From: Heterostelium pallidum
Taxonomy: Eukaryota
NCBI RefSeq assembly: GCF_000004825.1
Contig: NW_008805086.1
Coordinates: 965,410 to 1,029,409 of the forward strand
Length of the DNA stretch: 64,000 nt
Direction of reading: 5' to 3'
Shown: positions 1 through 32,091 of the stretch, in pieces
Position numbering within the stretch: the first letter of the stretch is position 1
Layout of the letters: each line of letters opens with the position of its first letter
Translations under genes and position numbers: made by a program
The notes under the pieces: generated by a model
The model's database searches: none
Told to the model about the DNA's origin: nothing
The model's input: the letters and a program-made list of their open reading frames with translations, nothing else

Positions 1-2879
1 CACGCTTACCGTCGTCAGTGAGATGTGAGAGTAGTGCATGGTCTTCCTCTGGGAAGAGAGTACGTGCAATCTCCTCGAGTCGGGTATTGATGTAACGAGG
101 TGCGGACGAATCCTTACCACCGGCCAATCTACTACCGAAACCACCACCTGGATAGAGAACATTGATGTTGTTGGCACCGACATAGGTCTGCGCCAGACCA
201 ATGATAGCGGACGCCAGTGATTGATCACCATGATGGTAGGCCGACTGCTCAGATACATAACCAATCAACTGAGCAACCTTGATCTCCTTCTTTAGATTTC
301 TCTTGAAACAGGAGAATAGAATCTTACGTTGCGAGGTCTTGAAACCGTCGACGATCGATGGAATCGAACGCTCACAATCGGCAATCGAGAAGAGAATCAA
401 TTCCTTGTCGATGAAATCGGTGATCTTTACTTTCTTGATACCGTATTGATCGAGGTAGGCACCCGGTGTGTACTGATCCATCCAGGTCTTACGATCGTTT
501 GCACGCTTCTTGTTGAATGCCTTGTCGATGGCATCGTCGGCACCATTGTCATACTCAAAGTCAATCTTGTGGTTGACGAGCTGCGAGAAGTACTCTTTGG
601 CTTCCTCTTCAGTCGATGTTCCAAGACCCTTGTAGTATTTGATTTCATAGCCTTTTCCATTGTTGTTTGCTTCTCTCCACGCTAAATACTCTGGAATGGT
701 GTAGAATGCAATGGTTTTGTTTCCTTTGGTTGCCTTGATGATTGGTGTGACAAACTCGACCAGGAATCCCTCGATACGAAGAAGCGATGGCCAGAAATGA
801 TGGATGAAATTGAGGAGTAAACCTTTTATGTGAGAACCGTCGTGATCCTGATCGGTCATAATCATCAGGTGACCGTAACGCAGTGACTTGACATCTTCGT
901 ATTGCTTACCGTGTTGCAATCCCATGATGTTGATGATATTGACAATCTCTTCGTTGGTCATCATTGTACGTGCATCGGATTCACGCACGTTCAGCAGCTT
1001 ACCTCTGAGAGGGAAGCAACCGTAGTGGTCCCAACCGACAACAGAGATACCAGAGACAGCCAACGTCTTGGCTGAGTCACCCTCTGTTAAAATCAATGTA
1101 CAATCCTCCGAGTGTGATGTACCTGCAAGATTTGCATCGTCCAACTTTGGTATATTCAAACGTGAACCCTTCTTGGTTGTAGCAGTTGTATTTCTCAACA
1201 TTGCCATTTCCTCTTTATGTTTTGCATATGAAATGATTTGATCTACAATACCTGATTTACTTTCAACAACTAAATAATTATAAAAAGATAAGATTATTAG
1301 TTTAAAAGTTGCTATTATGATTGTTGTTTTCTTGATTGGACTTACTCTTTTTAAGGAATTTTTCGGATGGATGACATTGTGATCCGAATGATGTAATTTT
1401 AGTTGAGAGATTCTCTTTGGTTTGAGAATCGAATGCAGGATTCTCAATGAGTGAGTTTACAAATACAAAGAGATGATTTTTGATGAATGCAGGTTTGATT
1501 TCGGCCTTGGATTTATGTTTCTTTTGTACGGCTTTTCCAATCTCGGCGAGCACATCGTTAAGTGCGTGGGTGACGTGGGTTCCACCCTTGGGGGTACAGA
1601 TAGAGTTTACGAAACTAACTTGGTTGAATTGTCCTTCGTGTGACAATGCTATGGCGATTTCCCAACGTTCGCTGACACGCTCATAGTAGATCTCCGGTGC
1701 CTTCTCCAGTGACTTGAAGTAGAGTTGAATGTAGCTTTGGAACGACTTGATATTGAGATCCTCGCCATTCAGTGTTACCTTGAGCGATGGATTGCAACCG
1801 GCGATATCATAGACACGCTTGGTAAGCAGTGCGACATTGTCGTCGTCGAGCATCGACAACATTCCAAACTTGGAGAGATCCGGATAGAATGTGATCTGTG
1901 TGTAATCGGTAGCCTTGGAGTAGGTGGTGATCTCTGGCTTCTCTCTGTTCTTGAGGTTGGCTTTGAAGGTCTGTTTAAAGAGTTTACGACGGCCGGAATC
2001 GGCACATTCCACCAGGAACTCGGTGGAGAATGCATTGGCCAGTTTCGCACCGAATCCGTTTCTTCCACCGGCCAGACGCTTCTCAGAGTCGTCGTAGTTG
2101 GACGAGGTCAGCAAGTGACCAAAGATCATCTCTGGCACGTACATCTGCTCCTTCTTGTGCATCTCAACTGGCACACCTGGACCGTCGTTCCACACCATGA
2201 TTCGGTTGTGCTCGGGATCGATCTCCACCTTGATTTGCTTCATCTTTTTCTGACCCTCTTGGAGTGGACGCTGAATGTTGTCGGCGGCATTCACAAGGAT
2301 TTCGTCGAATATCTTGTATAGTCCAGGCACGTAGCTGATCTTTCTACGCACCATTCTCTCGTTCTCCCAGATCCACAGCTCCTCCTCTTGTTTCTCGGTC
2401 GATCCAATGTAGGTATCGGGACGCAACAAGATCTGATCGAGTAACTCCATTCTCTTGTAGGTTTCATCGACCGACTTTACATTCTTTGTAATGTTGGTTG
2501 TTGGTTGTTTTCTCGAGTTGTTGTTGTTGCTTTCATCATCGTCGTCATCATCGTCGTCATCTGGAACAACAAAACTATCGTCCTCCAATTCCGATTCGGA
2601 TTCCGCTTTCTTTTTCTTGGCAGCAGCTTTCTTTCTTGGAGCGGCAGCAGGTTTCTTGGGTGCCTTTGTTGTCTTCTTGGGTTTGGGCTCGTCGTCGTCA
2701 TCGCTGTTGTCCAACTCTACAACCTTTGCTTTCTTGGCAGCAGCTGTTGTTGTCTTCTTTTTTGTTGCCGCAGCAGCTGTAGTTGTCTTTTTAGCAGCTG
2801 TTTTCTTCTTTGGTTCTTCATCCCAATCATCATCTGAATCCTCCTCTACATCAGATTGCCAATCTTCATCGTCTGACAT
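1..2879 (-). CDS. top2: DNA topoisomerase II, 5' part of the gene (about 930 codons); the CDS continues past the left edge of the window
   Basis: ORF 1302-2879 encodes an acidic/lysine-rich N-terminal extension followed by GHKL ATPase motifs (LLRPDTYIGS, EILVNAADN, GRNGFGAKL). A 76-nt intron (1270-1345, GTAAGT..TAG, phase 1) follows. My translation of the minus strand of 1-1269 then continues in frame through the TOPRIM and breakage-reunion regions (LTEGDSAK, PLRGKLLNV, IMTDQDHDGSHIKGL, YKGLGTS, IPSIVDGFK). Exons: 1346-2879 and <1-1269. Confidence 0.95.
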
Positions 2880-3283
2880 TCTTTAAAATAATCTTGTTTA
2901 TATAATAAATAAAAAACAATTATAATAACAAAAATAATAGAATAATAATTAAACTAAAAATGTTATAACAACAAAACTAAAAAAATCAAACAAGTGTGTT
3001 TGTTTGTTTTTTTTAAATATAAATAATATGATTTACTACTTAAAATAATCACAGAATTATTCAATTTAGTTAATTGTTTAATTATATAATAATTTGTTTA
3101 TCTATTAAAGAAAAAGAAAAAATATTGTTTGGATTGCTCTGAATTGTTGTAATTAAAACAAAAAAAAAAAAAAGAGAGCGCCAAAATTTTAAATTTTTGT
3201 CAGAAAAAAATGAAGTTAAACAAAAAAAAAAAAAAAAAACAGAATTCTTAGTAAAAAAAATGTAGTTTATTTGTTATCTCTGT

Positions 3284-3451
3284 TAAGAGAATTGAATTTA
3301 ATACTAATGTAACATTTAAAAGTGATTGACAATTATCGATATCATATCTTGAGATCAACAATTCTTTAGATTCTCAAAGATTTTCTTTTGGGATTCAATA
3401 AAGTCAGGGTTACTCATTAATGACATAATATTTGATATTTCATTGTCTTCA
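3284..3451. repeat. Degenerate direct copy of the last ~30 codons plus 3' flank of the PARP-like gene (partner copy at 3505-3671)
   Basis: Eye alignment of ..aaagtgattgacaat..atcgatat..ttctttaga.tt...a.attttcttttgggattcaa.aaagtcagggttactcattaa.gacataatatttgatatttcattgtcttcat in both copies. They are about 220 bp apart with scattered mismatches. Confidence 0.8.
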
Positions 3452-3576
3452 TAATATTATTATTATTATTATTATTTATTTATGTACATAAAAGAGATCT
3501 ATGAAAGAGAATTAAGATTGTTAATGTAATATGAAAAAGTGATTGACAATGATTCCCAAGTATCGATATGATACAC

Positions 3577-4749
3577 TTATTTCTTTAGACTTTCCAATAT
3601 TTTCTTTTGGGATTCAACAAAGTCAGGGTTACTCATTAAAGACATAATATTTGATATTTCATTGTCTTCATTATTATCATTGTTATTATTATTACTATTA
3701 TTACTATTATTATCGATACCAAAATGTCTAAATTTGTTGGTTCCATTGGCATTTCTGGTTGTTGGAATGGGATAGGATAGAGGAATTGCTGTAGTTGGTG
3801 GTGGTGGTGGGTGTTGACGGTTGGTTCGTGGTGGTGGTGGTGGTGGCGGCGGTGGTTGACGGTAAATACTTGTGGTTGATAGTGTTGATTTTATCGATGT
3901 ATTGGATGTTGGCATACCACGGGTATAAGCGTCTGAATATGTAATCAGATACTCGGGATAGGCACGACCGTTCTCATAGATGGTAAATATATCACCGCCT
4001 TTATAACTGTCGTAGACACCACGACTTGTGAGATCAGCCATCTGATCAAAGGGCACCGATAAAGCCATTGCACAACTACCTAGTAGCACACGACAATAGA
4101 ACATCTGGTAGATATTGCCTTGGCTCAACGTGTGTCGGTATCCATTGCTGTAGCTAGCGTTCATCGCAAAGTAGTGTGCCTTTCCGAAGCTGCCATAATT
4201 GGAAAACGACAGGTCGAAACCGACAGGATGATCATAGATCTCCGAGGGTCTGTGCGTTCTGGTTCCATGGTAGAGTCGTGATTCAACGATGACGGAACTA
4301 CTTGCATTGTAACGCTTCATCAACTCTAGACACTTGCTATGATAGCTACGCCAGAGTGTTTTGCTCTGAACACGCTCCACCTTTGTAATGTTGAAACTTG
4401 GAAGTGTTTCTCGAAAGTGTTGATGTATTTCATAGAATTCGGTGCCGGATCTGTCGATTTCAACCAATCTGACCTGCTCCTTTTGTGGTAACAGCCAGTA
4501 GAATGGAAAATCATGTTTCTCTGCTATTGCTTCCAGACCAAGTGTATCTACTACTTCGGTTTTGATTGTACTTTTTATAGATTTTCGTTGTGTGTCATCT
4601 TTCAATTGTTCAAAACTACTTTCTTTTTCTCTTATTCTCTTTTGACGTGATGATGATGATGAAGATGTTGCTGAATCTGTTGCTCTTGTAGTCGTCGTCG
4701 TTGTAGTTGAATCATTTTCAGATTTTTTTGGGAGTAAAATGAAATCCAT
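3577..4749 (-). CDS. PARP-family mono-ADP-ribosyltransferase (PARP7/11/12-like catalytic domain, H-Y-I triad) with a proline-rich C-terminal tail
   Basis: Single 390-aa ORF. Catalytic-domain hallmarks are FYEIHQHF..ITKVERVQSKTLWRSYHSK, the histidine in LYHGT, the tyrosine in GKAHYFA, and DIFTIYENGRAYPEYLITY. In that last motif the position of the PARP1 catalytic Glu is Ile, as in mono-ART PARPs. A run of 9 Pro and a poly-N tail follow. Confidence 0.8.
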   Translation of the reverse strand: MDFILLPKKSENDSTTTTTTTRATDSATSSSSSSRQKRIREKESSFEQLKDDTQRKSIKSTIKTEVVDTLGLEAIAEKHDFPFYWLLPQKEQVRLVEIDRSGTEFYEIHQHFRETLPSFNITKVERVQSKTLWRSYHSKCLELMKRYNASSSVIVESRLYHGTRTHRPSEIYDHPVGFDLSFSNYGSFGKAHYFAMNASYSNGYRHTLSQGNIYQMFYCRVLLGSCAMALSVPFDQMADLTSRGVYDSYKGGDIFTIYENGRAYPEYLITYSDAYTRGMPTSNTSIKSTLSTTSIYRQPPPPPPPPPRTNRQHPPPPPTTAIPLSYPIPTTRNANGTNKFRHFGIDNNSNNSNNNNNDNNEDNEISNIMSLMSNPDFVESQKKILESLKK

Positions 4750-5784
4750 TTGATCTTGTGATCACTTTATATCATATATTGAAAACATTAATAAGTATAA
4801 TAAGAAATTACTTCCAGTAGATTAAAAAAAAGGATACAAATTCTAAGAATTCATTATCCCTCAACTGAAAAAAAAACAAATAAAATAAATTACAATTTAT
4901 ATTGTTATATTTATAATAAATATTTATATAAATTATTTATTTTATATTTTGATAAGTTTTATTGTTTTTTTTTTTTTTGCTGTCCATATTTCTGATGTAA
5001 AAAAGTAAAAGTAGCATTTTATTTAATCCATTGATTTGCTTAAATGTCGATAAAAAATTTAAAATGTTAAATTTTTTTCAATGATAGTGGTTGTGGCTGT
5101 TTTTCACAATTTTTTTTTCTTCGTTTTTGCAATAGAGATTAATATTAAAAAAATAAAATAAAATATCAAACCTTGTTAGATTTTAATAAAAATTAGATAA
5201 ATAGAAAGTATTTTTATAGTAGATTTAGAATATAAAGTTTGATTTATTCTTTAAAAAAAATTTGAAAGAGTTTGGCCTCTGTTTTTCGATGGGTAAAATG
5301 AGTTTTCCAATCTGCATCGGAGTTCGGAGCAAGCTACAACAAACCCGAGAGATCAAAGAATACAGGGACAGACATATTTATCAATGTTATGAAAAGATCA
5401 ATCAATTTCTCAAAGATCTTCAATCAAAAATTGGTGTTCAAAAAATGGTTATTGTAATATGGGAAATTTATATGAGAAAATCAATGATAGGCAACTAGCG
5501 AAATAGATATTTAACAATGGACCCTACTGATTAAATAAAGCACATATATCAATAGAAATGGTTCAACACACGATATGTGATCTTGAATTTCTATCGATTC
5601 CTTGAATAGTGGATATAAGCTGGTATCTTTCACTTTGCCAATCTTCACTAAATATTAAATTTTGGTTTTTATTTGAATCAAACACAATCAAATCAACAAT
5701 AACCATATAAAATTCAATTGTATAATGTTAGCGATACGAAAAAGCAACTTTGTATTATAGTAGATTGACAAGAAAGTGAGTTAA

Positions 5785-6100
5785 TAAATGAATAAATGAA
5801 TAAATATAATATATATGAATATAAATATATAAATATATAAATATATAAATATATAAATATAAATAAATATAATATTTAAATAAATATAAAAAATATAAAT
5901 AAATATAACACTGAAAATAAATATAAATATTAAGATAGATATAAAGATAAATATAAATAAATAAATATAATACATATAATTGATATATAGAGAAATAAAT
6001 AAATTACTGGATGAATAAATAAATGTATGAAAGGAAGAAAGAAGAATGGGTGGATGAAAGATTGAAAGAAAGAAAGAAAGAAAGAAAGAATGGATGAAAG
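5785..6100. repeat. AT-rich low-complexity tandem repeats (ATAAATAT-type units, then (GAAA)n at about 6058-6095)
   Basis: Visible periodic aaatataaatatat units and gaaagaaagaaagaaagaaagaaagaat. The ORFs listed here (5781-5975, 5930-6193) are poly-I/F/Y translations of these repeats. Confidence 0.7.
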
Positions 6101-8154
6101 GAAGAATGAAAGTGAATTAGGTGCTAATTCACTGCAGTGCAAATAAATAGAAATATAGTGTAAGAATATAAAAATGTAAAGCGTTGAGCACAATGTGCAC
6201 TGGACTAATACAGTACTTATATTGTATTACCTATATCTATTTATTTATAGAATGATACATACCATATAAACAAATTAAAGGCAAAACTAACCTATACTTT
6301 TTTGGAGAAAAAAAAATAAATTTGAATTAGTTATCTTGAATATACTTGATTATTTACCCACTCCCTGCACTGAGTGTGCCCCTGGTAATCCATTCTATTA
6401 TTATTCACGACTATCATATCAAAATGGAGAAAATCTACATGATAACCGGGTGGCTCGTTCGATGCACCTTTATTGTTGTTACTCAACAATATTTTTCTAT
6501 TTAAAACAAAAAAGTTAATAAGTAAGAATGTTTATCCAAATTGATTTTCAATTACATACATTTTATTTTTAAAGATTGTAGCTGAGTCGATATAATAACT
6601 TGACCACCTTAGTTAGAAATATTGACTAGTTGGCCCTTTATATATTCTAAAGTGGTGCATTTTAAAATATATAGTTTTATAGTGTGCCTACCCTATAATG
6701 CCGGATTGGTCTGTATCAAATAAGTTAGTAAAACATTAATTGAATAATGTATACTAGACATTATTGAGTGACAGCCAGATGGGAGTCTTCATCTTTTACA
6801 TTCGGTAATACCAGAATAATTTGTCGTAGGCATACAAAATTATCTGATATGTTGAACATAAAATTAATGACATACGAAATATAATAAAGAAGTAAATAAA
6901 ATTTATATTAATAAAATTATATGCGTATACCTTTATTGGACTATTCTCTTGATTAAAAATACAAATAAAATCTAGAAAGATCACATTCTTTGTATGAATT
7001 GACCTTTGTATAATAGAATGAATTAGTTAAGTACATTCACAACTTGTTATTTTACAATGGTAATAATATCATATTATAATATACATATAAACATATAAAT
7101 ATAATACTTACAACTTTGATATAAGATTAGGAATTACTTTAGGAATAGTTTTGGTACAAGGAATATAGATTTAATGAATGTAATAAAGTTTAGAGATATA
7201 ATTTATAGTATAATATTTAAAGATAATAGTTTATTTATTTTACAGTTTGAAGATAAGAATAATATTTGGTAATGTTGAATAATGTTGAATAATTAATTAA
7301 TTTCTATAATGGATTTTCCAAGGTATTTATACTGTTGGATTTCTTCGACTAGTGCAGTTGCTCAATCTCAGAAATCTGTTCTTGATTAACTAGTTTGGTA
7401 TTCATTGTAGATTAACTTGTTGGTTATTTCTTTATGTTAACTTTGATAGATTGATATTTTGTTGATTCACTGAATGTTGATATTATTCTAATATATTTAA
7501 TTATTGTTAAACAGCTGGATTATTAATTTAAGTTATTTGAAATCGTGTCCATAAACTGTTTGAATTGTGATAGTTGAATTCTTAATAAATTATTGAAGTG
7601 TCAGTTGATTTGGTTATTATAATTCTAAAATGTTAATTTTAGAACACAACTGCTATATAAGGAACTTATACTTACAATGAACTAAAACATAATATAAAAC
7701 AAAATTTACTACTACCAAATCAATATGCTTCAACATTCAAACACTCCAGATAATGAATCAGGTTGAAAGCGTTATTCTAAAATAATATAGCAAAGTGCTC
7801 ACATTTTGAATTGTGTTTTTGTTAATAACCAAAATCACCTTATTCAATGTTGAAATAAATTTGATTTGAAATGTACTAGACCAGACTCCCATCCGAACAT
7901 ATACATAGCTTCATCAAACCCATAACAACAAATGAAAAAATAGGCGAATTGATTGCAAGATTCTTTACACACTACTGCATATACTATTTCAAAACAAGCA
8001 ATCAAAAATTATTGAATAATTATGATCCACTAAAGATATGTCAAAGAAATAAAAATTAGTAATCTGTATTCATTAAAATAAAACAATTATTACTTACACT
8101 ATCTTTTATGCCTAAACATCTCCACATACCAAAAAGATAATAATAAAATTTGAA

Positions 8155-9771
8155 TTATAAAAATGATTTTAAAACATTTCCAATCATATTTTGAATTGGT
8201 CTTATTACCAGGTTTGATAATGGGTTCTTAATGAGTAGAGTGGAGAAGAGCTGTCCATAGTCCGCTATGGCTGTGAGGCATGGAATTCTTATAATAAGTT
8301 CTCGTAGAGATGGCCAATTGGATAAGAAGTCACCGGCATTGTTCATGTTTTCGTCTTCTTCTGCGGTATTCAACTGGTCCTTGATCTTTTCATATGGAAT
8401 ACAGAATCGATCGATCTCCATTGCATCGTCAGTTTCCTCAACTTGTTCCATGATAGGATCTTCATGTGATGTCATTTCTACATCATTTGATGCTGCTGCT
8501 TCTGACTGTGGTGGAGATTGTTGTTGCAGTGTTTGTGAAAGTTGTTGTAAATAGTTGATTTGTTGTTGTTGTCTATAATCTTGAATCTGCGAGTTGTAAT
8601 TGTTATCGATTTCAAAGATTACGACAATTTCTTTTGCTGGTTTTGATTGTTCCGTTGATTGCACTGTAGTGTTGTGTTGAATAGGAGTATGGAGTGGTGT
8701 TTGGGTTGGAGATTGGATTGGTGATTGAGATGGAGTTTGGATTGGTGTTTGGGATTGTGTTGGAATTGGTGTTTGGATTGGTGTTTGGGATGGTGTTTGA
8801 ATTGGTGTTTGGGATGGGGATTGGATTGGTGTTTGACTATTTACATGAGTTGATTTGTGATGTTTTTGATTGTCCATTGATTCTTGATTATTATCTTCTT
8901 CTCTTATTCTTTTTTTTGTTGAATTGTTATTATTATTATTGTTATTGTTATTTATTTGGTTATTTATTTGGTTATTTATTTTTTTATGTTGACTATTATT
9001 GTCACAATCATCCTCTCTTTCTTTTCTTTTACCACTATAAATCAAGCTCGATCCGATATCATGATCATCGTCACCAAAATCAATCGATTCGATATCAAAC
9101 AATGGTTTACTTTGGGTATTTTGTGTATTATTATGTGTATTATTATGTGTATTATGTGTATTATTCTGTGTATTATTCTGTGTATTAATTTGTTTATTAT
9201 TTTGTGTACTATTTTGTATATTATCTTGTGTATTATTCTGTGTATTATTTTGTGAATTAGTCTGTTTTGTTTTCTTTGTTCCTCTGTAGCCTCTTCTTCT
9301 TTTGTTTGTACCAGAGAGTGTTTGGTCTGGTGTAGTTGTGGTAGCTGGTTTTGGTGAAGATTGAGATGAAGTAGAAGCAGCTTGTGAATTTGAAAGTGTT
9401 GGTTGAGATGGTGACTGAGGTGACGAAACAATTTGTTGTGTTCTTGAAGGTGTGGGTTGTGGAGCTAATTTAGATGTTACATTGGCATAAGTATTTATAA
9501 TATCGCTCATCTCTTTTGCCTTTTCCTTATTTGATTCGTCTACATTCTTGGCAATCTCATTCATTTCTATCATGGTGTTTAGATAGGTGGTATGTGCCTT
9601 ATCTCGAGCTGGTTTCCAAGACTGTGCCTCCTCCTTGGTGGTCGATTCGTAGCCTTTGGAAATTGTAGTCTCTTTACCAACTTGACTTTTCATAGCAGAA
9701 TATTTGTAGATAGTCATTTTGTCAACTTCATTTCCACCCATGAATTTAATGTAATGTTTATTGGCACGCAT
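8155..9771 (-). CDS. Low-complexity (NTQ / QTPIQ repeat) protein; either a separate gene or the last exon of the 9831-11487 gene
   Basis: The ORF is 538 aa. Its ATG at 9771 is directly preceded by AG, and a GTAAGT donor sits at 9839. That defines a 68-nt phase-0 intron (9772-9839) that would fuse ..FQFLDNRS to MRANKHYIKFMGG... I recognised no domain. The N- and C-terminal parts are non-repetitive. Confidence 0.5.
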   Translation of the reverse strand: MRANKHYIKFMGGNEVDKMTIYKYSAMKSQVGKETTISKGYESTTKEEAQSWKPARDKAHTTYLNTMIEMNEIAKNVDESNKEKAKEMSDIINTYANVTSKLAPQPTPSRTQQIVSSPQSPSQPTLSNSQAASTSSQSSPKPATTTTPDQTLSGTNKRRRGYRGTKKTKQTNSQNNTQNNTQDNIQNSTQNNKQINTQNNTQNNTHNTHNNTHNNTQNTQSKPLFDIESIDFGDDDHDIGSSLIYSGKRKEREDDCDNNSQHKKINNQINNQINNNNNNNNNNSTKKRIREEDNNQESMDNQKHHKSTHVNSQTPIQSPSQTPIQTPSQTPIQTPIPTQSQTPIQTPSQSPIQSPTQTPLHTPIQHNTTVQSTEQSKPAKEIVVIFEIDNNYNSQIQDYRQQQQINYLQQLSQTLQQQSPPQSEAAASNDVEMTSHEDPIMEQVEETDDAMEIDRFCIPYEKIKDQLNTAEEDENMNNAGDFLSNWPSLRELIIRIPCLTAIADYGQLFSTLLIKNPLSNLVIRPIQNMIGNVLKSFL

Positions 9772-9830
9772 CTTTTTTTTGTAAAAAAATATTGATTAAT
9801 AATTGTTTTGAATTCAAATTATATAATTGA

Positions 9831-11487
9831 TTAACTTACTGATCTATTATCTAAAAACTGGAAACGATGATACTCTGTAAAACCAGGAAAGATCTTTATT
9901 TCTTTCTGTTTCAATTCCTTTGGGTTATGAATTTCGACTGTTACTTTGATGGTAACAGCTTCCTTCTCTGATTCAGAGGTCAATTTGTATGTTCTTTGAT
10001 AGTTGTTGTTGTCAGTGGTACTCTTGATTGCATTGATAACATCTTGATCTGTATAGATTGAATCTTTGAAACTCGACTTGTCTGCTATCGCTCTAGAAAC
10101 CATTGAAAAATGTTGATCGCATTCACTCTTTCCGTGATAAGGTGCAAAAGTATTCAATTCGACGAGATACTTTCTTTTGGTTTTGTTTGGAGTGTTTGGA
10201 TCAGCTACTTGCAACTTTGACAATGTATGCATATATGAAAGTATTTCATTTGACTTGAAGTGTCTAGCATTATCACACCAAAATGTAATTTTGTTGATAT
10301 TTAGACTGGTGAATAATGGATCATTGATTAATTTGTCGAGACATGAAATTGCAAATGTCGAACAGTGATTAAGTACTTGTGAAAGACAGTCATAGTAGTG
10401 AATCTTCAGCTTGTCACCTTGCTTATAGAAGAGGACCATTCCAAAGAAGGTACGAGCAGGTTGTTGGTAAAATTCATGGCTTACTTGCACTTTGGATTTA
10501 CCTAATGATATATTCTCTTTAAAATCACAGAGAATAATACACTCTCCTGCCTTTAACTCATTTTTCTAAATATTAATAAATCATTAACTAAATGTATTAA
10601 TAAAATTATAATTACACATGTCAAATAATCATTCTTTCTTTGCTGAACAAACATCTTGTGAATAGTCAAGATTTCAAACAGTTTATGATCTTGATCTGAA
10701 AGTTGCCCAAACTTAATTCGTTTTGACTCGAGAGCCTGATACTGAACACACATTGGACACATGTCGGTTCGATTCTTCATTTCTCTGACATACTCTGGTA
10801 CGAAACTGTAAAATGCACTTCTACCCATGAGTGGATACTTGACTTGATCAACTTTACTCTTCTTGAGGTAATCTGAAAAGCAGGTATTTATGTTTCCTAA
10901 AGCAAGGTTCTTGATTGGCACCAACTCGAATGCTCGTTTACCATCTGCGTCGAGTTCTTTGCTGTACAACCTCATGTTTTTACTTGATTCTTCAGTTATA
11001 TCTTTCATATTGAAGTAACCTTCGACGGCTGTCCTTAGCATCGTGGTTCTTTGTCTTCTTGTCATTTGTCCATTGTGTGTAAATTTAGATCTCCAATTGC
11101 TGATCTCTTCTGCATTAATCAGTCTACCTGCACCATACTTATGTACGTGTTGAATTGCACGATTCCACGCATTATTATCTATTGTGATTCCAAACTCTCT
11201 GATTTCCTTAGAAGTGTAAAAAGGAACTAAACTTGATAACAATCTAGATTGGGAATATTAGTATCAATGATATACAAAATCGTTATTAAATTTAAAACTT
11301 TACTTTTATTACCAGACCTCTCTGATAATTCACTATAGTCCTTATAACGATTACTCTTGACTGGTTTAGTGTTTGAATCACTAACTGATTTTATTGAATT
11401 CAATACTCCTTGTGTATAATTATTGAAAGAGGGAGCCAATGATGGACTATTATTACTCTTATTTTGTGTAGTTAATCTGCTTGCCAT
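9831..11487 (-). CDS. Transposase-like protein of an unnamed family (motifs DF-x-EN / W-x-DN-x-x-HFK / HGK-x-x-CD); 3 exons, possibly spliced on to 8155-9771
   Basis: Exon 1 is 11313-11487 (an alternative donor gives 11304). Exon 2 is 10616-11226. Exon 3 is 9831-10565, or ends at 9840 if the TCA|GTAAGT donor is used. All junctions are phase-consistent. Joining the exons gives ..NDYLTC|KNELKAGECIILCDFKENISLGKSKVQVSHEF... Other motifs are CPMCVQYQ, ITFWCDNARHFKSNE and YHGKSECDQHF. Confidence 0.6.
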
Positions 11488-12887
11488 TTTAAAATAAAAC
11501 TTAATTAAAATAACGAATCAAAAATCAAATATAAATAATTAAAAAGAATCACTAACTTTAAATTATTTTTTTTTTTTTAAAAAAAAAGCAAAACAACAAA
11601 AAAGCATAGCCACATGATAATAAGTATTAGTTTGATGCACCTCTTTAACAATATTTAATGATTAAATCTATAGATTGTTTTATTTTTTTCTTTATTATTA
11701 AATTTTAAATACATATATTGTGTTTTGTTTTTTAAATAACTCTCTTTTGATCCATGTATAACCACATGACCAACAGTCTACCTGTTTGTAGAATAATACC
11801 AAAGAGGTTACGAGGGGTCATAATGTTCACGAATTGATGAACATTATATTTCCTCGATATATTTTCTTTGACATTCGAAACAATGTTGAATTGCTCTAAG
11901 CATTATTAGTTAGCTAAAATAAAACCATTGGTTTTCACCAAATCTTGACAATAATTAAAAGGTTCACGTTTCTCAGCTGCTCTTCTCCTATAGAATTCTC
12001 TGAATGATGATGATGGTTTAACCAGTCAGTTAATTAAAGTTGTTTAAAAGTGAAAAAATAAAATAAATCTATATCTTTATAAATATTACATCCACTATCC
12101 TTTTTAGCCAATCTATGATTACATGTGCTTGTTTATATGTTTATTTTACTTTTTAGTTGAGCAATAGAACTAATTCTGTTATTGAACTCAAACTTTGTAA
12201 TTGTTTCTGTTATTGAAACGCATGCTAATCGGTCATTGTCCAGTAATTAACCTTTATTTACTAATTTACTACATCTCGTATATCTTGGTGATAAATATTC
12301 AAATAATAATTAAATTATAACTATATTTTAAAAGAATGAATTAAGATGTCTGTTTTCTTTTGTTTTGAATGCAAAAAAAAAAAAAACCAATCCCAAAAAA
12401 TAAATAAAAAAAAAAGTTATTTTCAAATGATCCAAACTAACTTGGATATTAGAAAAAGAATCTTTTTTTTTCTTTATCCTCGATTCTTGGTAAAAAACTT
12501 TTGGAATTAAGTTTTCAACCTCTTTTTTAATATGGAGAGAATTTGACTCATTACAACTAAACTATTCTTTTTTGTTTTGACAAAACCAAATTTTTTCATT
12601 TTAATTTTTTTACTTTACAAACCTTCAAAATAAAACAACAAATACAATCTTCAAATTTATTTAATAGTTACTATTTCTTTTTTTTTAATATTATATCTAT
12701 TCTTTTTTATTCTTTATCTTTTCTTTATATTATTATTTATTATTTATTTTATTTGTTTATATATAGTTTTATTAGTTCAAAGTTATTTATTTATAATTTT
12801 TATTTATTATTATTTATTTATATTTATATTTTTATTTATTTTCTATTTATTTTCTATTTATATATTTTTTTATTTATTTTATCAAAT

Positions 12888-14956
12888 ATGTCAACATATA
12901 AAACTATTAGTGATTTAAAACTAGAGGATTTTATCAATAATGAAACTTTTTCAAGTAAATCAAAACAAGAATCACAAGACGCAACCAATCTTCTTTTCCA
13001 TCTTCATAATATTATTCATAGTTTTTATTTAAAAAATATTAATAATTTAAATAATAGTAATTTTAATAATATATCTATTTATATAGAAAAGAATCTTAAT
13101 AATATAAACTCTAAAGATATCTATAATCAATCAGATTCAATAACAATCAATTATCAAACTTTACAATATATTGTAAATAGATTATGTAATAAAAAAGATA
13201 GAGATGAAACAAAAGGAATAAATAAAATATTGGGAAAGGGAGAAATATCTGTATTGGAAGTATATAAAAAAATATCTCTAGAAAATACAAAGTGAGTATC
13301 ATTAAAGTTTTAAAAATAAATTTTGTTTTAAAATCAAACTAATAATAATTTTATATCCAGGAAACAACTTAAGGTGTTTATTAAGGAATACAGGGAGAGT
13401 AAAGTTTTCCAATTATTACCAGTCGATCAAAACAGCAATTATGATACTACTCAAGTTGCAAAACAACTCACAACCAATATAGTAAATCACCTCTCAGTTC
13501 AACTTTCAAATCATATTAGAGATATAATGAAATTATACAATGCAGCAATTAAAGAGCTCCTTCCAGATCCAGAGATAGATCGTACAGAGACCCTTCGATT
13601 TCTTATTAAATACAACATTGTAAGTTTATTTTTTTATTATTTATCAATAATAGAAATATAATTAATATAGTTTTTTTTTTACAATTATTTTTTAGGCATC
13701 AATCTTACCAAATAAAGAAATTAATAAATTGTTGGCAGACAATAAGTTAGAAAATACAGATCCAACTGAGAATATTATAAGAATTATAAATAACAATTTA
13801 GATTATTCAACTCTCAACCTCAGCAAACTATACTCATTTTTTAATGGATATGATTTTGAAAAGCTTCAACAAATGGAGAAAGGTGTATTCACCAACAGCT
13901 GGAAATTTTTTTCAATTGGATTGGGCAGTGTTTTTTTTAAATTTCAAAAAAACATTGAGGAAATAGGTCATCAAGTGGAATTTGCACAGCTTGTTAATTC
14001 TCTGAACCAACATATCGAACATTCTAATTTATTACAAGGTATGTTTAAATATATTTATAATCATTTCTATTAATGATTAAAATTAACTTTTTTAATTATT
14101 TTTTTTTAATAAATAGTTGTAAAAGATGGTAAACAACTCTTGGATGTATTAGGCAAACAAGAAGAGCCATTGTTGGTAAACACGTCTGCTCCAAGAGATA
14201 TCAAATTTACCAACTCGGAAAGCCATTTGGTTATTTGGGTTCGATCAATCTTTAAGAATATCTCAAAATATGGAGATCAGAATTTGGATAAAATTCAAAA
14301 GAGATTATCGTTCTTTATACCAGCAGCACCAACCTCATCAACAACCACAACTGCAACTACTCCAACAACAACAACAACAAAAGTGAGTTTTTTCAATTGT
14401 AATTCCAAGAATCACGAGGCACTTGGATTGGCGAAGCCAACACCGGTAGTAGACAGATATCGAGATACAAATATTTGCAGTACATGTCAGTATCACACCA
14501 ATAACAGAAGAAAAGAAAATCGAAAAGACATTTTAGCAACAGATATAATTAAATCTTTAGGCGATTTGAAACAAGAAGATAATAGTAAAGTAAATCAACT
14601 TTTAGTTATAGTAAAGGATATAATAGTAGAAGTTTTTAAATCAGAGATAAATGACAATTATAATATAGATACTTTAATAGAGATATTAAAGATAGAAAAG
14701 GAGAAGTATGATCATCGCGATAGTAAAAAGAAAAACAAGAAGAATGAGAAGAAGAAAGAGAAGAAGAAGAAAAGCAAACAAAGTTTAAAAAATCTACAAC
14801 CACAACAACAACAACAACAACAACAACCACAACAACAACAACAACAACAACCAACAGTAATCAACAACCTTCTCTACGATCTATATTTGATGATAATGAT
14901 GATTTCGAATTTAAAAGTGATGATCCAATAGTAGCTACAACAACAACAGATTCAAC

Positions 14957-14992
<36 letters not shown>

Positions 14993-15744
14993 TTTAGAAG
15001 GATCAGACCAATCCTATCACCCAGAAGAAACCACTGCCAATGGTTTTTTTGATATCTTGAATTATTTCTCCCGAATGCCACTTCCATCAGGTAGCTCCAA
15101 AGATACTAGTGCTAGCCGTGCAGATCAATTGCAAGATCTGCAGATGACTGAAAAACCAATCTCTCCGTATTCTCTCAGTGAAGGACCACCGGATCCAGAT
15201 GTAATATTCGTATCAGACCACCTTGATTCAAAGGTTCACCAAAAGAGAAGGTTGAATGAGAATACCATATACTACGATATTAAAAGTTGCTCTTGGCTTT
15301 TTGTAGATCCATCCAACTCAAAGGATTTGTCTGATGAGCAGCTCCTATCAATCAAGGTGAACCGTATAAAGCAAATCCTACAACTTGGTAAAGGTACCTT
15401 CTTTCTTTGTGGTATAGCATTATGGAAACTTCTCCGAGTTCTTATCACGAATGAAGAGGTCAAGATCACCAATAGAGATCATTGGTATACATCAATGAAA
15501 TTGACTTGTAGCTTTGCCGGTCGCTCCATCACATTATTTCTGTTATCAGATCCTTGTCATTCATCAACAATAACAAAACAAGGATTCCAACATTATTCAA
15601 ACTGGAAAAAGGATACAGCTATAAATATCATCGACTCGGAGGCAAAACCAACTACAACCACCACCATCTCCAAATCTCCTCATATCAACAAAAGCAATAG
15701 AAATAGGAGATTGATATTTATCAATAACAAGGTTGTAGAGAGTG

Positions 15745-15780
<36 letters not shown>

Positions 15781-18700
15781 TTTCAACTCAATATTGTAGT
15801 GGTGATGATAAGATGATTCATGAAGATAAAGAAACATTAGGTACCGATCAATGTATGGAGGATGATGTCTCTAACGATACTTCAAATGAATCTATTATTT
15901 CAGCTAATGACCCACCAACACCAACCACTACTACCACTACCACTACTACCACTTCCACTTCCACTACTACTAATAATAATAATGACTATTACAAATTCTT
16001 TAATATTCGTAATAGATCAATGTCATTCACTCTATTTCCTAGTGTAGATTTGTAAGTATACTTTTTAATTATTCAAAGATCTAATATTCACTGACATTAA
16101 TTTTTTTTTATTTTTTTTTTTTTAAATAGATTTAATCCATTCAGTTTGATGTATTCTGCCAAAGACATTAGAAGAATCATCAAAGCCGAGGATGGTATGA
16201 CTGATATCCAAGTTATAAGATCTATTTTAAAAGTAGATTTCCTCAGGAGAATATTTGAAGCCAATCCGATCGATGTACATATCAGAACAAACGGTTATTC
16301 AGGTGGTGTTGTGTTTAAAAGCAAATCAAAAAAAGTTCAAAAACAATACGAATTGAGTAAGTTGATAGATATTTATAATCTAGTTTGTATTTTTTTTTTA
16401 CTAATCAATTTTTTTATTTTATTTTTTTTTAAAGTTGGTTTAAAAGACATAAAAGATAAAGAAGTACTTACTGAAGAACAATTTGAACAACTTGGTGTAG
16501 TAGTATGTGATCCAGCACCAAACCACAATGTTTGGTTAAATAACAAACATCCGTTTGCAAACGGTGATTATTCTTTCCGAAAGAATGTCATTGACGTGAA
16601 GTCTTCAACGCATCACTTTCAATCCGAGTCTGGTCTGAACAAACACAAAAAGAATAAGCTACTCGGTCACGATTTAATGAAATGGCAGTCTGACATACCT
16701 TCAGTCAAAGGTAATATCATTTTTCACAAGATTATCAAATTTTGTTTATCTTACTAACTATAAATACTATTTATTTTGATTTTTTTTTATCATAGGGTCC
16801 AGTACAAACAATATTACAGATCTTGTAATATATGAAAAACGATTGGAATTTATATTCAAATCGGTTTTTTTACCACCAGAACAAAGAAGTTCAGATATCA
16901 AACCATATGGTACTCTAAGGGCAGTCGGAGAAGAGAAAAAGAAAGAGCAACGAGTCTGCCTCTCAAACAACACCACCATTCCATATCACTCAAACCAGCA
17001 TAAATCCGTCTTCCATCAGTATCGACAATGTCATGGTGATGCGTGGCAAAAGGTTGATTTGGATCGATCGCGATCAAAGAAGCACAGTGAATCATTAAAT
17101 TCGAAAAAATTGTTCAACTTTGCATTGCAATCGATTCCTATCAAGCAGTTAACTCATGATCCAATGCAGATCGATTCCACCGATCCCAATGATCCAAAGC
17201 AGATCGACTCCACCGATTCCAATACTCCAAAGCGCGTGCCAAAGTTGGTATTCAAGGGTAACAATGTACCCATCCAATCCGACAGGGAATCATCTCAAGA
17301 GAAAAGTGGTGCCAATAAGATGAAGCTACGACGCGTTGGATCTCCCATCAAAGTGAGAAAAGTATATATTCACTTACTTCGAGAACACCTCGGCAAGCTT
17401 GACGATGGCTCACTGGAGCGATTCATGGATCGATTCAAATTTGTGCTAGATATAACCTATTTGCAAGATGATTTTACGAATCTACAGAAAGAAGCATTGC
17501 TAAAGTTCCTCAAGGATCACAAACTCGAGTTCCTCGAACCAATCGACGAGTCCAATGTACGATTAATTGATATACAGACTGCAATTCACTATTATGGAGT
17601 GGAGCTCATCCAACAAGCAATGGATATATGGAAATTCTTTAAGTTTACCGAACCATTGCCAGGTAATCAAGGTGTGGAAAAAGAAGTAGATTTCAAAGAT
17701 GGCATAAATAGAGTCGAACAAATTACAACAACTTTCAGGAACCAAGCGTTTCAAAAGTTTTGGTTCAGACGTATTCATTTCGAACGGTGCAAATGGCTAA
17801 AGGATCATGGAATTAAGATCATGCCAGATAGTGTCGGAGGTCACTGGATTAGACCAAATCAATCAAAAGTGGACGCCAATGAAGACAGTATTTACCAACT
17901 ATTACCAGTCTTTAACGGCTTGACAATTTTGGTCATGGTATCTAACGGTACAGATGAAGGAAAAAAGGTAGAAAGAACATTAATCGGTCGAATTAAATTG
18001 AATGGTGGAAAGTACACTAGGGATGTAAATGGCACATTCAACTTTATGGTTACTGACAAGAAAGATTGGGACAGCACACCAAACAAAAAGGCGAGAGAGA
18101 TCTGTAAGGTGAAGAATATTCCAGTAGTTTCCAATGCCACTTATATTACAGATTGCCTGAGACAACATGTGTATCTACCTCTACTATCGTATGATCTGTC
18201 GTCAGCTGCCAACACTACCAGTAGTGCTGCGAAGGTTTCACCAAGCAAGAAGAGTGGTTCCAAGACAGCTACCAACACTACCAGTAGTGATGCGAAGGTG
18301 ACACCAACCAACAAGCGTATCGACTCACCCGCTCCCTCCATACCGGATCTTCAAACAAAAAAGAAGTCCAAGAAGACCGACAATACCGACAAGAAGTCTA
18401 TCGATAGCGATGAAGACAAAGACAATCATCCGAAATCCCGAAAGAAATCAAGTAAGTAATTAACTATTTGTTATTTTTCAAATTAAAACAGTTCATTAAT
18501 ACCAATATAAACACTTTCATTCTTTATAGAGAATAAGAAAAGAGGTAGATGGAAGTGTTTATGTTGTGGAAAAACCAACAATTTCAAACGATTTACTGAT
18601 GTACATTACAAAGTTCTCCACTGCAATCACTGTTTATTGGTACACATCCCTTTTAAAGATCGAAAAGCTGCCAAAGAATCAGTTGATAAAACTAGAGTCG

Positions 18701-19431
18701 GTAAGTATCATAGTTGAAAAATAAAAAATAACAACTGTTTTTTGATTAATCTTTTTTTTTTCACACATTTAGTTATTGGTGCTGGTTGTGGTAATTTAAA
18801 TCATATTCAACGAATGAAAGGTGTGAAATATAGTCCTGCCACGGAAAGAATCACCGAATCTCTCCAAAGATACAGTTTCAGTGTTTCGAAAACAAACATG
18901 AAAATATCAATTTCCAACGAGTTCAATACATCACAAGTAGGTTTTAACTGTTTAATATCAATTGTTTTTTTATATTTTTACTAATAAAATAATTATTTTT
19001 TTTTAAATTTTTAGGTGTTTGGTCCAAACATCGATAAACTAGAAAATGACTTTGTTTCAGCAATCAACAAACCAGTTTCAAACGAGTGGACGCAGGCAAA
19101 GAAAGATGAAGAGCTCCATTCGTTATATAACCTAGCCAAGGTCAAACCCCCAGGAGAGAGTAAATCATATAAACCAAAAGATACCAAGAGGGTATATAAC
19201 AAGTCATTCTCTGTTCGGTTGTACACTGGAAACGATGACCAAGGCCAGCCTAAAGATATTTTTATCAATAGAGATATTCTTGCATGTACAAACATGATGG
19301 CAATTGCTAAGGCCTATTTTTGTGGAAAGCAACGTCCACAACTTTTAGCACCATTCACCAGTCAACCTATTATTAATACCCCGGGCAAGGAATGTCCACG
19401 ACAAAATTTGATTTCTGCGTTTACGCAGTAA
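12888..19431 (+). CDS. Giant multi-exon gene (about 1,950 codons) with a C-terminal TnpB/Fanzor-like split RuvC nuclease module and a BRCT-like insert; contains one unresolved frame break
   Basis: Hand-derived exons: 12888-13291, 13361-13619, 13696-14038, 14117-~14850 (frame 1), ~14850-16051 (frame 0), 16130-16356, 16435-16710, 16796-18451, 18530-18700, 18773-18936, 19015-19431. All junctions are GT..AG and phase-consistent except the frame switch inside 14748-14931. RuvC-I is LGVVVCDPAPNHNVW (D codon 16508-16510). RuvC-II is ISISNEFNTSQ (E codon 18919-18921). RuvC-III is DIFINRDILACTNMMAI (D codon 19273-19275). Confidence 0.6.
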
Positions 19432-19827
19432 GTATTGAAATTTTTTTTTTTAAAAAACAAAAAGCACAATTTACTAATTTTTTTCTGTTTTTCAAGAGAA
19501 TAAATCAAATGCTATAAAAAATATTAATTTGTTTTATTTAATTAATTTTCATCTGAGTTTAAATTTAATTAAACTTAAGTGTAATTTTCCAAAAGAATGT
19601 ATTATTATTACTCTCAATATGAAAACCATCTTTATATTTTATATAGAAAGATTTATCTTTATTAACTCAAGATCAATACATTATAATGAAAAAAGACTTG
19701 CTCCAAACCAGAAAAGATTGTAGAGTGGTAATAATAAATAAATACTGTTTTATTACAAAATAAATAAAAGCATCATTAATTGAATTTTTAGAAACCAAGA
19801 ACATAAAAACCTGGTATAGTTTTTTTT

Positions 19828-21269
19828 TTATGGAAGACATGCACATTTGACACCTGTGACATCAAAGATAACTGGGAATTTACCGACGGTAACAGTTGCA
19901 GTGCAGTCAAAACCAACACAGGTCCATTTGAATCCAGAGTTTACCCATTGACCATCCATGTTAGCGTATGGTGTGGTGTACCAGACTTTGACTAGATCGA
20001 GTGGAACCACCGATTGTGTGGTGAGAGTGGTTGTGACGGTGGCAGCATTGTTCGATGACCAGGCAGAAATGACTCTGTGTTGAGCACCACCAGTCAAGTT
20101 ACGGTAGAATGCCAGCTTGTAGAGCGAACCCGATGCCAAGACACTCTTGGTGGCGTCGTAGGTGTAGTTGGAAATGAATGGTGTTATCGACTTCATTGTG
20201 AAGTACGCTGGCTTTGGTGACCAATTGTGATCGAGCAAACCAAAGTTGTGCTCACGATCGTAAAAGTCGACACCGTCATCAAAGATATCGTACCACCACA
20301 TACCCTTGATGTTTGGAATGACACGTGCCAAGAAGTAGACTCTAGCCAAGTAGGCAGCTTGAATCTCAAGGGTGGATCCACAAGTCGATGGATGCGATGA
20401 TGGCCATGTCATTTCGGTGATGTACAATGGAGTGGCTACACCATTTCTGAGACCAGTCCATCTTGTGTTTGTTAGGTTGACCCAACGGAACCAAACCTCC
20501 GGAGTGTTGTCGGTACCACCACAAAAATTGTATGGATGGATCGAGAGACCATCGACCTTTGTAGCTAAACCTTGTTGAATGACACGGTCACCAAATAATT
20601 GGTCCATACCATCAGAGGTAATACAACCACCAAGAATCTTGGCATTTGGATCGTTAGCTCTAATAACTGGAATTGCTGCATTGGCCAATTGCATATAGTG
20701 AGTTGCAGTATTTGGATTTCCTGGATCATCTAAATCCCACTCATTCCCTATATATCAACAATTTTATAAATATTTTAGTAATTACTATTTGTGAATTATT
20801 TTATAATAATAATTTACTTACAAACTTCATAGAATTGAACTTTTCCTTTGTATTTGTTTACAACCCATTGGACATAGTTGGTAAAGGCAACTGTGATATT
20901 GGTACCTTGTGGTTTCTGGCCGTTGTTGTAATGTTGATTTCCATTACCGAGGATGAACAACTTGCTGAGCGATGTTCTTGGTTGGAGAGCAACCATAAAG
21001 TCATTGAACTCGTAGATCTCGGTTAATTGACCCTTTACAAACTCGACAGAACTCCAGTATGGTGTGTCACGCACCGATGCCAATCCAGCTCCGATGGCAG
21101 CATCCAATGGTGGCGTAACAGTGGTAAGCGAGACAGGTGGTGACATCAAGTGGGTGCACACACCAACAATGAAATCGTTATCTCCATTCACAATGAGTGT
21201 TGAACTCAATGAAAGAATAAAGATAACAGATAATACCGATAGCTTAAAGATATTATTATTTTTATTCAT
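19828..21269 (-). CDS. Secreted clan GH-A (TIM-barrel) glycoside hydrolase with a C-terminal beta-sandwich-like domain; family not assignable by eye
   Basis: Two exons, 20822-21269 and 19828-20747, separated by a 74-nt phase-1 intron. There is an N-terminal signal peptide (MNKNNNIFKLSVLSVIFILSLSS). Splicing restores the acid/base motif FYEVW|NEWD, and the nucleophile-type motif is LYITEMTWPS. Confidence 0.85.
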
Positions 21270-30462: not shown

Positions 30463-30669
30463 ATAGGATTTGACTTTATCAACATTAACATAATCAAAAC
30501 AGTACACAATGACTCATCAGATATAACAGGAGTTTAACTATACTTTTAGTATAAAATAACTCTTAATGATGACACATTTGTTAATATCATCCCAATGATT
30601 AAACATGGTCTGGAAAGGTAGTTAACTTGAAGGACTTGTCTGATTAAATATCTCATCATAAAATAAATA
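30463..30669. repeat. Left arm of a 207-bp inverted repeat, starting 7 nt after the ORC3 stop codon
   Basis: The reverse complement of 31885-32091 matches this arm with only 3 mismatches by my eye alignment. Confidence 0.95.
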
Positions 30670-31288
30670 CATGTTCTATTTTTATTTATGTTAAACACTC
30701 CATTGAGGTAAATCTTATTTATTAAAAAAATAATTCAATTAGATTCATTGATTCTGTTAACATATCCACAAATCTAGTAATTAAAACATAAAAAAAAAAT
30801 TATCTAAACATGTGTTTTAAAATATAAAAACAACGTAAAAATAAAGATATTAATCACAACTAATATATTTTCAAAAACTTAGTAATAATAACAAATAAAA
30901 TAAGATGTATTAAATAAAACAACCACATAATATAATATTTATTTGTAAAAATTCAATCATTTTTTTGTACAGAAATCATATAAAGATTATTAATAATAAA
31001 TATAACCTTGAATATGATTATAATTTATGTAGTCTAATATATATTTTTAAAACAATGGTAATAATAATAGACTGTAAAAGCAGTCTCATTAGTTTACGTA
31101 TTATTGTACAACCTCTTAAAGAATGAGTCATGCCTATTACCTTTCTATTCTCAGTTTGTAAATATTAGTTCAACTGTTGTTTATATGTGTAGAATCTAAC
31201 TTTATAGAATGTATTTAAACAAGTTATTCTCATTACTTTTAAATCATTCAAAAAATAACTTTATTTAAACAATAGTTTTCTAAACAAA

Positions 31289-31753: not shown

Positions 31754-31799
31754 ATTTAAATAAATCAATATTTATTTTTTTTCCTTGAATTAAATTGTA

Positions 31800-31864
31800 A
31801 ATTTAATTATGATTGTTTCAAAGTGGATTGGTATATTGACAAAGTTAATCGATCACATACTATC
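31800..31864 (+). repeat. Ectopic direct copy of an internal ORC3 exon fragment (source 29393-29459)
   Basis: The string aatttaattatgattgtttcaaagtggattggtatattgacaaagttaatcgatcaca..catactatc is present at both sites. The only difference is a 2-bp indel (cacaca versus caca). Confidence 0.9.
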
Positions 31865-31884
31865 AATTTGTTTTTTTTATCTTT

Positions 31885-32091
31885 TATTTATTTTATGATG
31901 AGATATTTAATCAGACAAGTCCTTCAAGTTAACTACCTTTCCAGACCATGTTTAATCATTGGGATGATATTAACAAATGTGTCATCATTAAGAGTTATTT
32001 TATACTAAAAGTATAGTTAAACTCCTGTTATATCTGATGAGTCATTGTGCACTGTTTTGATTATGTTATTGTTGATAAAGTCAAATCTTAT
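31885..32091. repeat. Right arm of the 207-bp inverted repeat (partner 30463-30669)
   Basis: See the left arm. The arms enclose a 1,215-bp spacer that carries the CBM49-like gene and the ORC3 exon fragment. Confidence 0.95.

Follow-up and report, generated by a model that had tools for sequence, protein, structure and literature searches.

A divergent transposase and Fanzor1 gene pair of Heterostelium pallidum lies within a probable copy of the published Sola2-Fanzor1 transposon PPa-4

In 2013, Bao and Jurka described the 'Sola2-Fanzor chimeric elements' PPa-1, PPa-4 and PPa-5 of Polysphondylium pallidum PN500 (Mobile DNA 2013; PMC3627910), and the chimeric elements DFa-1, DFa-2 and DFa-3 were reported from Dictyostelium fasciculatum (PMC3627910). 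The three PPa families have short imperfect terminal inverted repeats (TIRs) and AT-rich target-site duplications (TSDs) of 4 bp; their 5'-terminal 7 kb, which contain the Sola2 transposase gene, are ~98% identical among the families, whereas the Fanzor1-encoding 3' parts are entirely different (PMC3627910). For PPa-4, a length of 14,423 bp, 3 copies, a 16-bp TIR, a 4-bp TSD, a Sola2 transposase and a Fanzor protein of 1827 amino acids encoded by 14 exons have been tabulated (PMC3627910). Here, we describe a locus on a 64,000-nucleotide stretch of AT-rich eukaryotic DNA from Heterostelium pallidum (contig NW_008805086.1, positions 965,410 to 1,029,409 of the forward strand), hereafter called the window, in which a minus-strand gene lies head-to-head with a gene for a protein with RuvC motifs. 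We conclude with high confidence that positions 5066-19506 of the window are one insertion of PPa-4, a Sola2-Fanzor1 DNA transposon of strain PN500, and that the minus-strand gene codes for its Sola2 transposase. The finding is not new, as the 2013 publication already covers the element and its superfamily, the ends, the TSD and the two proteins.

For the comparison, the PPa-4 consensus was rebuilt from Additional file 2 of PMC3627910; its 14,423 bp agree with the published length. A blastn alignment of the consensus with the window gave five collinear blocks of 99.0-99.6% identity, which reach from the first to the last base of the consensus (consensus 1-1981 to window 5066-7044, 99.6%; 1985-5640 to 7647-11282, 99.3%; 6033-10738 to 11282-15983, 99.6%; 10759-13108 to 15965-18315, 99.0%; 13122-14423 to 18203-19506, 99.0%). 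The whole copy occupies 5066-19506 and is oriented as the Fanzor gene, on the plus strand. It is flanked by a perfect 4-bp duplication, AAAT, that was read directly at 5062-5065 and 19507-19510; the G at 5066 is identical to the G at 19511, which makes the element boundary ambiguous by 1 nucleotide. The 5' terminus with the left imperfect TIR, GTTAAATTTTTTTCAATGATAG (5066-5087, plus strand), is the same as the starts of the PPa-4 and PPa-5 consensus sequences, and the 3' terminus with the right imperfect TIR, ...CTGTTTTTCAAGAGAATAAATC (19485-19506, plus strand), is the same as the PPa-4 consensus end. When the left end is set against the reverse complement of the right end, GATTTATTCTCTTGAAAAACAG, 13 of 22 positions match in an ungapped comparison. 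The window copy agrees with the published PPa-4 in its termini, in its 4-bp AT-rich TSD and in its Fanzor1 and Sola2 proteins.

An earlier sequence-only reading of this DNA, made without database searches, had proposed that the transposase-like gene and the RuvC gene belong to one mobile element, and both genes are indeed located inside the published PPa-4 termini and the AAAT duplication. The same reading had seen no TIRs by eye. A repeat search over the window likewise returned no TIRs, the only repeats in the surroundings of the element being of low complexity. The termini themselves match the published consensus ends, and short, imperfect TIRs would explain why none were seen by eye or by the repeat search. 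The proposed block of 8155-12887 corresponds to the transposase gene and the adjoining intergenic region, the enclosing unit being the larger stretch 5066-19506.

The transposase gene PPL_04538 extends over 8155-11487 on the minus strand and consists of four exons (11487-11313, 11226-10616, 10565-9840 and 9771-8155). In this gene model, four pieces of open reading frame are spliced into a single open frame of 1042 amino acids by the removal of three GT-AG introns of 86, 50 and 68 nucleotides. At 100% identity, the translated product matches XP_020434960.1, which is annotated as a 'hypothetical protein' in Heterostelium album (Polysphondylium pallidum) PN500; NCBI gives the PPL_04538 product a length of 1060 amino acids. 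All four peptides that had been quoted for a minus-strand gene at this place, CPMCVQYQ (10759-10736), ILCDFKENISLG (10535-10500), ITFWCDNARHFKSNE (10289-10245) and YHGKSECDQHF (10139-10107), were located on the minus strand within this one spliceable frame. The divergent arrangement, too, was described correctly, as the ATG of the transposase gene at 11487 (minus strand) and the ATG of the RuvC gene at 12888 (plus strand) are on opposite strands and 1400 bp apart. Furthermore, the introns and long low-complexity tracts that had been noticed by eye have counterparts in the three modelled introns and in the C-terminal half of the transposase, which is of low complexity with N/Q/T-rich tracts and PIQT repeats (8700-9300).

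The 1400-bp divergent intergenic region (11488-12887) between the two start codons is AT-rich and is also found in the PPa-4 consensus, and the published extent of ~7 kb would place the end of the shared PPa 5' module within it. The ~3 kb from the 5' terminus to the stop codon of the transposase gene (5066-8154) are devoid of a recognisable gene, and Pfam gave no match for the open reading frames 5262-5498 and 6336-6518 located there. This stretch belongs to the 5' module reported to be common to PPa-1, PPa-4 and PPa-5; the PPa-5 consensus was compared by eye over the first ~2 kb. From residue 59 onwards, the 'Sola2_PPa-1' protein of Bao and Jurka differs from the window model by 3 residues and one X (~99.7% identity), and the extra segments of the published protein are introns that were read through. 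The PPa-4 consensus differs from the window copy, and a diverged fragment, PPL_01051, is located on another H. album scaffold. The flanks of the window copy resemble those of GL291006_1 in Additional file 11, the text of that listing being noisy.

On the other side of the intergenic region, the multi-exon Fanzor1 gene of PPa-4, which is TnpB-like and encodes RuvC motifs, occupies 12888-19431 on the plus strand, and the published protein is collinear with it by tblastn. The published PPa-4 Fanzor protein maps over its full length to 12888-19428, inside 5066-19506, and the start of the protein, MSTYKTISDLKLEDFINNETF (MSTYKTISDLKLEDF), is the start of the window gene at 12888. The RuvC motifs of the window gene read VVVCDPAPN, ISNEFNTSQ and INRDILACTN, and its stop codon is 75 bp away from the right terminus of the element. 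The RuvC-I motif VVVCDPAPN precedes NEFNTSQ by ~700 codons (16500-16530, 18530-18700 and 18770-19300). The interval from TSQ to INRD contains no C4 zinc finger, and a separate upstream exon carries a CxxC...CxxC arrangement (RGRWKCLCCGK...HCNHC). The PPa-5 and PPa-6 Fanzors have the same zinc-finger variant as PPa-4, whereas in that of PPa-1 the canonical CxxC precedes RD. Since the publication of 2013, the literature has described Fanzor as an RNA-guided nuclease; lacking the usual C4 zinc finger after TSQ, the PPa-4 Fanzor might be inactive as a nuclease. An Rfam search of 4500-20500 gave three chance-level matches and no omega-RNA-like family.

The same gene pair is present in Cavenderia fasciculata. 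On GL883007, a homologous transposase gene (10001-13703) is arranged head-to-head with the DFa-2 Fanzor1 gene (C-terminus ...CTGCGKSFNRDVNAARNMLLLG), and the unit of 4793-14333 starts with GAATATTTATTTTC and ends with ATAAAGGCTC, which are published termini, with AAAT on either side. A second pair on GL883021 is ~99% identical to the first one over ~7.9 kb. The C. fasciculata transposases share 33-36% identity with PPL_04538, and judging from these loci the two species keep the same two-gene architecture within one TSD-bounded unit despite this distance. DFa-2 resembles PPa-4 in its head-to-head Fanzor1, in its short termini of the G...C type, in its AAAT TSD and in having multiple ~99%-identical copies. 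However, its Fanzor1 is a different one, the examined copy is shorter (9.5 kb), and the distance from the transposase gene to the 5' terminus is ~0.6 kb compared with ~3 kb in PPa-4. The sequence-only reading had stated that the idea of a joint element would fall if the two genes were never linked elsewhere; instead, two C. fasciculata loci carry the head-to-head pair.

These findings also bear on two other explanations for the arrangement. The pair could be a domesticated host locus that is fixed at a syntenic position and no longer mobile, with a dead TnpB-like gene, as the sequence-only reading had allowed. In favour of this, introns and long tracts of low complexity are found in both genes, as in host genes, PPL_04538 is alone in its 90% cluster, and the repeat search gave no TIRs. 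However, lost termini, a lost TSD and a single copy would mark a domesticated host gene, and here the termini and the perfect AAAT duplication at the flanks are intact, while the copy is 99.0-99.6% identical to a multi-copy consensus derived from other copies and ends exactly where the consensus ends. Moreover, the published family comprises several copies with different flanks (PMC3627910), and the two ~99%-identical C. fasciculata copies are on different scaffolds, so that domestication is barely conceivable. The genes could also be accidental neighbours, a Sola2 element next to an independent Fanzor element with ends of its own; that the 3' parts differ among PPa-1, PPa-4 and PPa-5 while the 5' 7 kb are shared suggests that the Fanzor module is exchangeable. 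Yet neither internal termini nor internal duplications were found between the genes, a single AAAT duplication encloses both of them, the entire 14.4 kb form one unit in the consensus and the same bounded head-to-head pair recurs in C. fasciculata, which makes an accidental neighbourhood highly improbable.

The superfamily of the minus-strand gene, which the sequence-only reading could not name, is Sola2 according to profile comparison. A family profile was built from the window transposase and 29 relatives (30 sequences; residue numbers below refer to the full protein) and was compared with the RNase H cores of Sola1-1_AP, Sola2-1_HM and Sola3-1_HM, which were taken from the supplement of Majorek et al. 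2014 (PMC3985635). In that study, the Sola2 references form the RNase H-like clade E.12 (PMC3985635). The profile matched the Sola2-1_HM core (Repbase) with 51 bits and E=1.6e-17, the whole core being aligned, and scored below 0 against the Sola1-1_AP and Sola3-1_HM cores. In the profile alignment, the motifs of Sola2-1_HM and of the family pair as DFAENY/DFKENI, ISDDITHD/LSQVLNHC, FTDGCAGQYKN/FWCDNARHFKS and FFATSHG/TFAPYHG. The series DF-x-EN, S/T-x-x-x-HD/C, [FW]-x-D-[GN]-x-x-x-[YF]-K and HGK is common to the window transposase, to Sola2-1_HM of Hydra and to the sea-urchin protein LOC100887903, although the pairwise identity between Sola2-1_HM and the window transposase is very low. The motif constellation that the sequence-only reading recognised from 'uncharacterised' eukaryotic proteins is, as judged from these aligned motifs, the Sola2 signature. 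For metazoan Sola2 elements, carriage of a Fanzor gene has not been reported, unlike for PPa-4.

Bao and Jurka also assign this transposase to Sola2 and give 4-bp TSDs as the feature of Sola2 (PMC3627910). In agreement with this, AAAT flanks both the PPa-4 copy and the GL883007 copy of C. fasciculata. Sola was reportedly defined by Bao, Jurka and Kapitonov in 2009 by a DDD catalytic triad, and the window transposase has a DDD triad in an RNase H-like fold. In Pfam, Sola2 has no model, and Sola domains have been described as being without Pfam models in a paper on fungal transposons (PMC5751038). DUF7869 matched neither the window protein nor the Sola2-1_HM and Sola3-1_HM cores. It has weak matches in 4 of the 30 relatives and matches the Sola1-1_AP core with E=1.1e-5; by these comparisons, the weak matches are a reflection of a distant Sola1 relationship.

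An exhaustive HMMER search identified 687 representatives related to the transposase at E<=1e-3, of which 302 reach E<=1e-10, in line with the large family of 'uncharacterised' multi-copy eukaryotic proteins that had been suspected. The best non-self match is DFA_08389 of C. fasciculata, whose 90% cluster also contains DFA_06085, and the other relatives are mostly from short metagenome contigs. In the 30-sequence alignment, D213, C215, C218, H248, D276, K278, N280, W358, D360, H406, G407, K408 and D412 are invariant. Since a database protein is 100% identical, 687 representatives are related and the motif residues are invariant in the alignment, the motif constellation is not due to chance. 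In contrast to the profile searches, the standard searches were of little help. Pfam returned for the full transposase only a chance match to HSA (E=0.55) and neither an integrase nor a mariner domain, and a sequence search of the PDB gave no match. A word-index homologue search yielded zero matches and failed to return even the protein's own database entry; as this entry exists and was missed, negative results of this type of search need caution for eukaryotic proteins that are rich in low-complexity sequence.

An AlphaFold (AF2) model that was computed from the 30-sequence alignment has a mean predicted local distance difference test score (pLDDT) of 76.7 and a predicted template modelling score (pTM) of 0.69. 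In the predicted structure, the order of strands and helices, b1-b2-b3-a-b4-a-b5-a, is that of an RNase H-like core; this core comprises residues 265-430 (10062-10559, minus strand). D276 (10526-10524) is located on b1, D360 (10274-10272) just past b4 and D412 (10118-10116) at the start of the helix following b5. According to the model, the transposase core is of the RNase H-like, retroviral-integrase/mariner type with D276, D360 and D412 at the canonical catalytic positions, and catalysis would be carried out by this triad. The RNase H-like (DDE-type) fold, which had only been suspected from the letters, is supported by this core with its invariant DDD triad. Retroviral integrases and Tc1-mariner transposases have cores of the same fold, in which acidic residues are likewise found on b1, behind b4 and on the helix that comes next; in sequence, these cores are 10-14% identical to the window transposase. 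The window transposase departs from them in having D instead of E as the third of these residues. Its core is also preceded by a T-D-x-C-x-x-C motif (D213, C215 and C218; 10748-10765, minus strand), which falls into invariant columns of the alignment. Together with the invariant H248, this motif may form a putative zinc-binding element upstream of the core.

Several points weigh against the identification of the locus as a PPa-4 insertion with a Sola2 transposase. With 13 of 22 matching positions in AT-rich DNA, the TIRs are weak by themselves and would fall short of significance if there were no published consensus to compare them with. For H. album, the copy numbers are those of the literature, which gives 3 copies of PPa-4 and lists 12 5' ends of PPa-1, PPa-4 and PPa-5 together (PMC3627910). 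A pairwise BLASTP comparison of the transposase with the Hydra Sola2 core was not significant (E=0.18), and therefore the Sola2 membership rests on the profile. Moreover, the window copy is devoid of 392 bp of transposase coding sequence, and in the PPa-4 consensus exon 1 can be spliced cleanly to the next coding stretch only if a run of seven A residues (A7) is read as A6. Given the deletion and the A7 run, an intact and active transposase is at best presumptive for any copy. The A7 run is situated at consensus ~5990-6010, which is deleted in the window and would fall near 11283; if it is read as it stands, the first exon reaches a stop. This problem points to a frameshift that is shared, or else to an error in the sequencing or in the consensus.

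The deletion junction is at 11282/11283, where consensus bases 5641-6032 are missing according to the blastn blocks and the translations. The lost 392 bp correspond to about 97 codons of the 5' coding region of the transposase gene and take in the last part of what was ancestrally the first coding exon, an intron and an exon of ~60 codons, VLEELKKDGSITTTEEFRKGYKEIYEEIPGATTHAVALSYVISSLQSGQYTDRDGYEKTR (VLEELKKDGS...DGYEKTR). The modelled intron 1 (11312-11227) spans the junction, and the intron of the NCBI model presumably bridges the deletion likewise. A second difference is an extra AT-rich segment of 602 bp (7045-7646), which fills the gap between two blastn blocks in place of consensus bases 1982-1984. 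CACAACT is present at both junctions of this segment. The segment may be a nested insertion, or it may have been lost from the copies behind the consensus. The copy further differs from the consensus in the lengths of micro- and minisatellites.

The catalytic core and both termini of the window copy are intact. Because of the 392-bp deletion and the 602-bp extra segment, the copy is probably, with moderate uncertainty, a slightly damaged one that would depend on intact copies acting in trans. It is unlikely that the window copy is fully autonomous, with exon 1 being spliced to the VPFY exon to give an active enzyme. Such autonomy would agree with the in-frame GT-AG model and the 1060-amino-acid product annotated by NCBI, with the intact invariant family residues including the DDD triad and with the intact termini. 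Moreover, the deleted stretch is possibly dispensable, as the best match of the deleted peptide to the N-terminal part of the family profile is not significant (E=0.22). However, the modelled intron bridges a deletion by which about 97 codons were removed, and the homologues carry a conserved region of ~100-150 amino acids upstream of the position at which the window transposase begins to align. The caution of the sequence-only reading about the activity of the element has some basis in the deletion in the transposase gene, while its argument from missing TIRs would be explained by short imperfect ones.

By analogy with other RNase H-fold transposases, the Sola2 enzyme would bind the short imperfect terminal repeats, 5'-GTTAAATTTT... 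and ...AGAATAAATC-3', and would excise the entire 14.4-kb unit in a cut-and-paste manner. Reinsertion would proceed by 4-bp staggered cuts at AT-rich sites and would create the AAAT duplication; the 'empty' site before the insertion would have read AAAATTTAAAAT up to the insertion point and GCTATAAAAA beyond it. The divergent Fanzor1 gene, whose product would be an RNA-guided RuvC nuclease by homology, would be a passenger or a partner within the same termini. Fanzor1 may aid the persistence of the element, as has been proposed for TnpB in IS605 and IS607. Like PPa-4, IS605 and IS607 combine an unrelated transposase (TnpA) with a TnpB-family RuvC gene that ends near the right end. However, their transposases are HUH (IS605) or serine (IS607) recombinases, whereas the PPa-4 enzyme is a TSD-making DDD enzyme of the RNase H fold; moreover, the PPa-4 genes are divergent, intron-containing and eukaryotic, unlike those of IS605 and IS607.

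It is tempting to speculate that the Sola2 transposase and Fanzor1 are a functionally coupled pair rather than a driver and a hitch-hiker. Coupling would fit the three PPa families, which share a near-identical Sola2 module and carry different Fanzor1 modules, and the architecture, which has been kept in C. fasciculata at ~35% transposase identity. Nevertheless, we regard this idea as tentative and rather doubtful. If it were correct, there would be selection for always carrying a Fanzor, for instance because the nuclease, guided by RNA, would cut AT-rich (AWWT) donor or target sites that are empty. Such cleavage would restore or spread the element, and the pair would be the counterpart of TnpA and TnpB with a eukaryotic DDD transposase.

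Regardless of this, the PPa and DFa elements lend themselves to the question of why DDE-type transposons carry Fanzor genes. We know of no Sola2 transposase that has been characterised biochemically, and the predicted structure offers D276, D360, D412 and the T-D-x-C-x-x-C motif as candidate residues in such an enzyme. The assignment is also of use for annotation, as the label of PPL_04538 and of DFA_08389/DFA_06085 is still 'hypothetical protein' and hundreds of metagenomic relatives are unannotated.

The PPa-4 insertion is intergenic. It is situated upstream of a host gene with a PARP catalytic domain (3577-4749, minus strand; Pfam PF00644, E=6e-14), at a distance of about 310 bp from its start codon. 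No tRNA genes were found within the window, and hence there is no sign here of the tRNA targeting that is seen for other dictyostelid elements.

Elsewhere in the window, an inverted repeat of 207 nucleotides (30463-30669/31885-32091) has arms that are 99% complementary and 1215 nucleotides apart. It encloses an open reading frame (31289-31753) for a small, Cys-rich, signal-peptide-like protein of 154 amino acids. The region 30463-32091 may have arisen by a recent inverted duplication, or it may be a foldback element resembling a miniature inverted-repeat transposable element. Seven tandem 21-nucleotide repeats at 57591-57787, which were read by eye as heptads of the SPSYSPT type, could encode the C-terminal domain of the large subunit of RNA polymerase II. 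At 61271-61851, tandem repeats of ~93 nucleotides are 73-94% identical and may encode putative CCHC zinc-knuckle units on the minus strand. Finally, a direct repeat of 300 nucleotides with 78% identity is present at 41844-42143/43693-43992, its copies being 1849 nucleotides apart.

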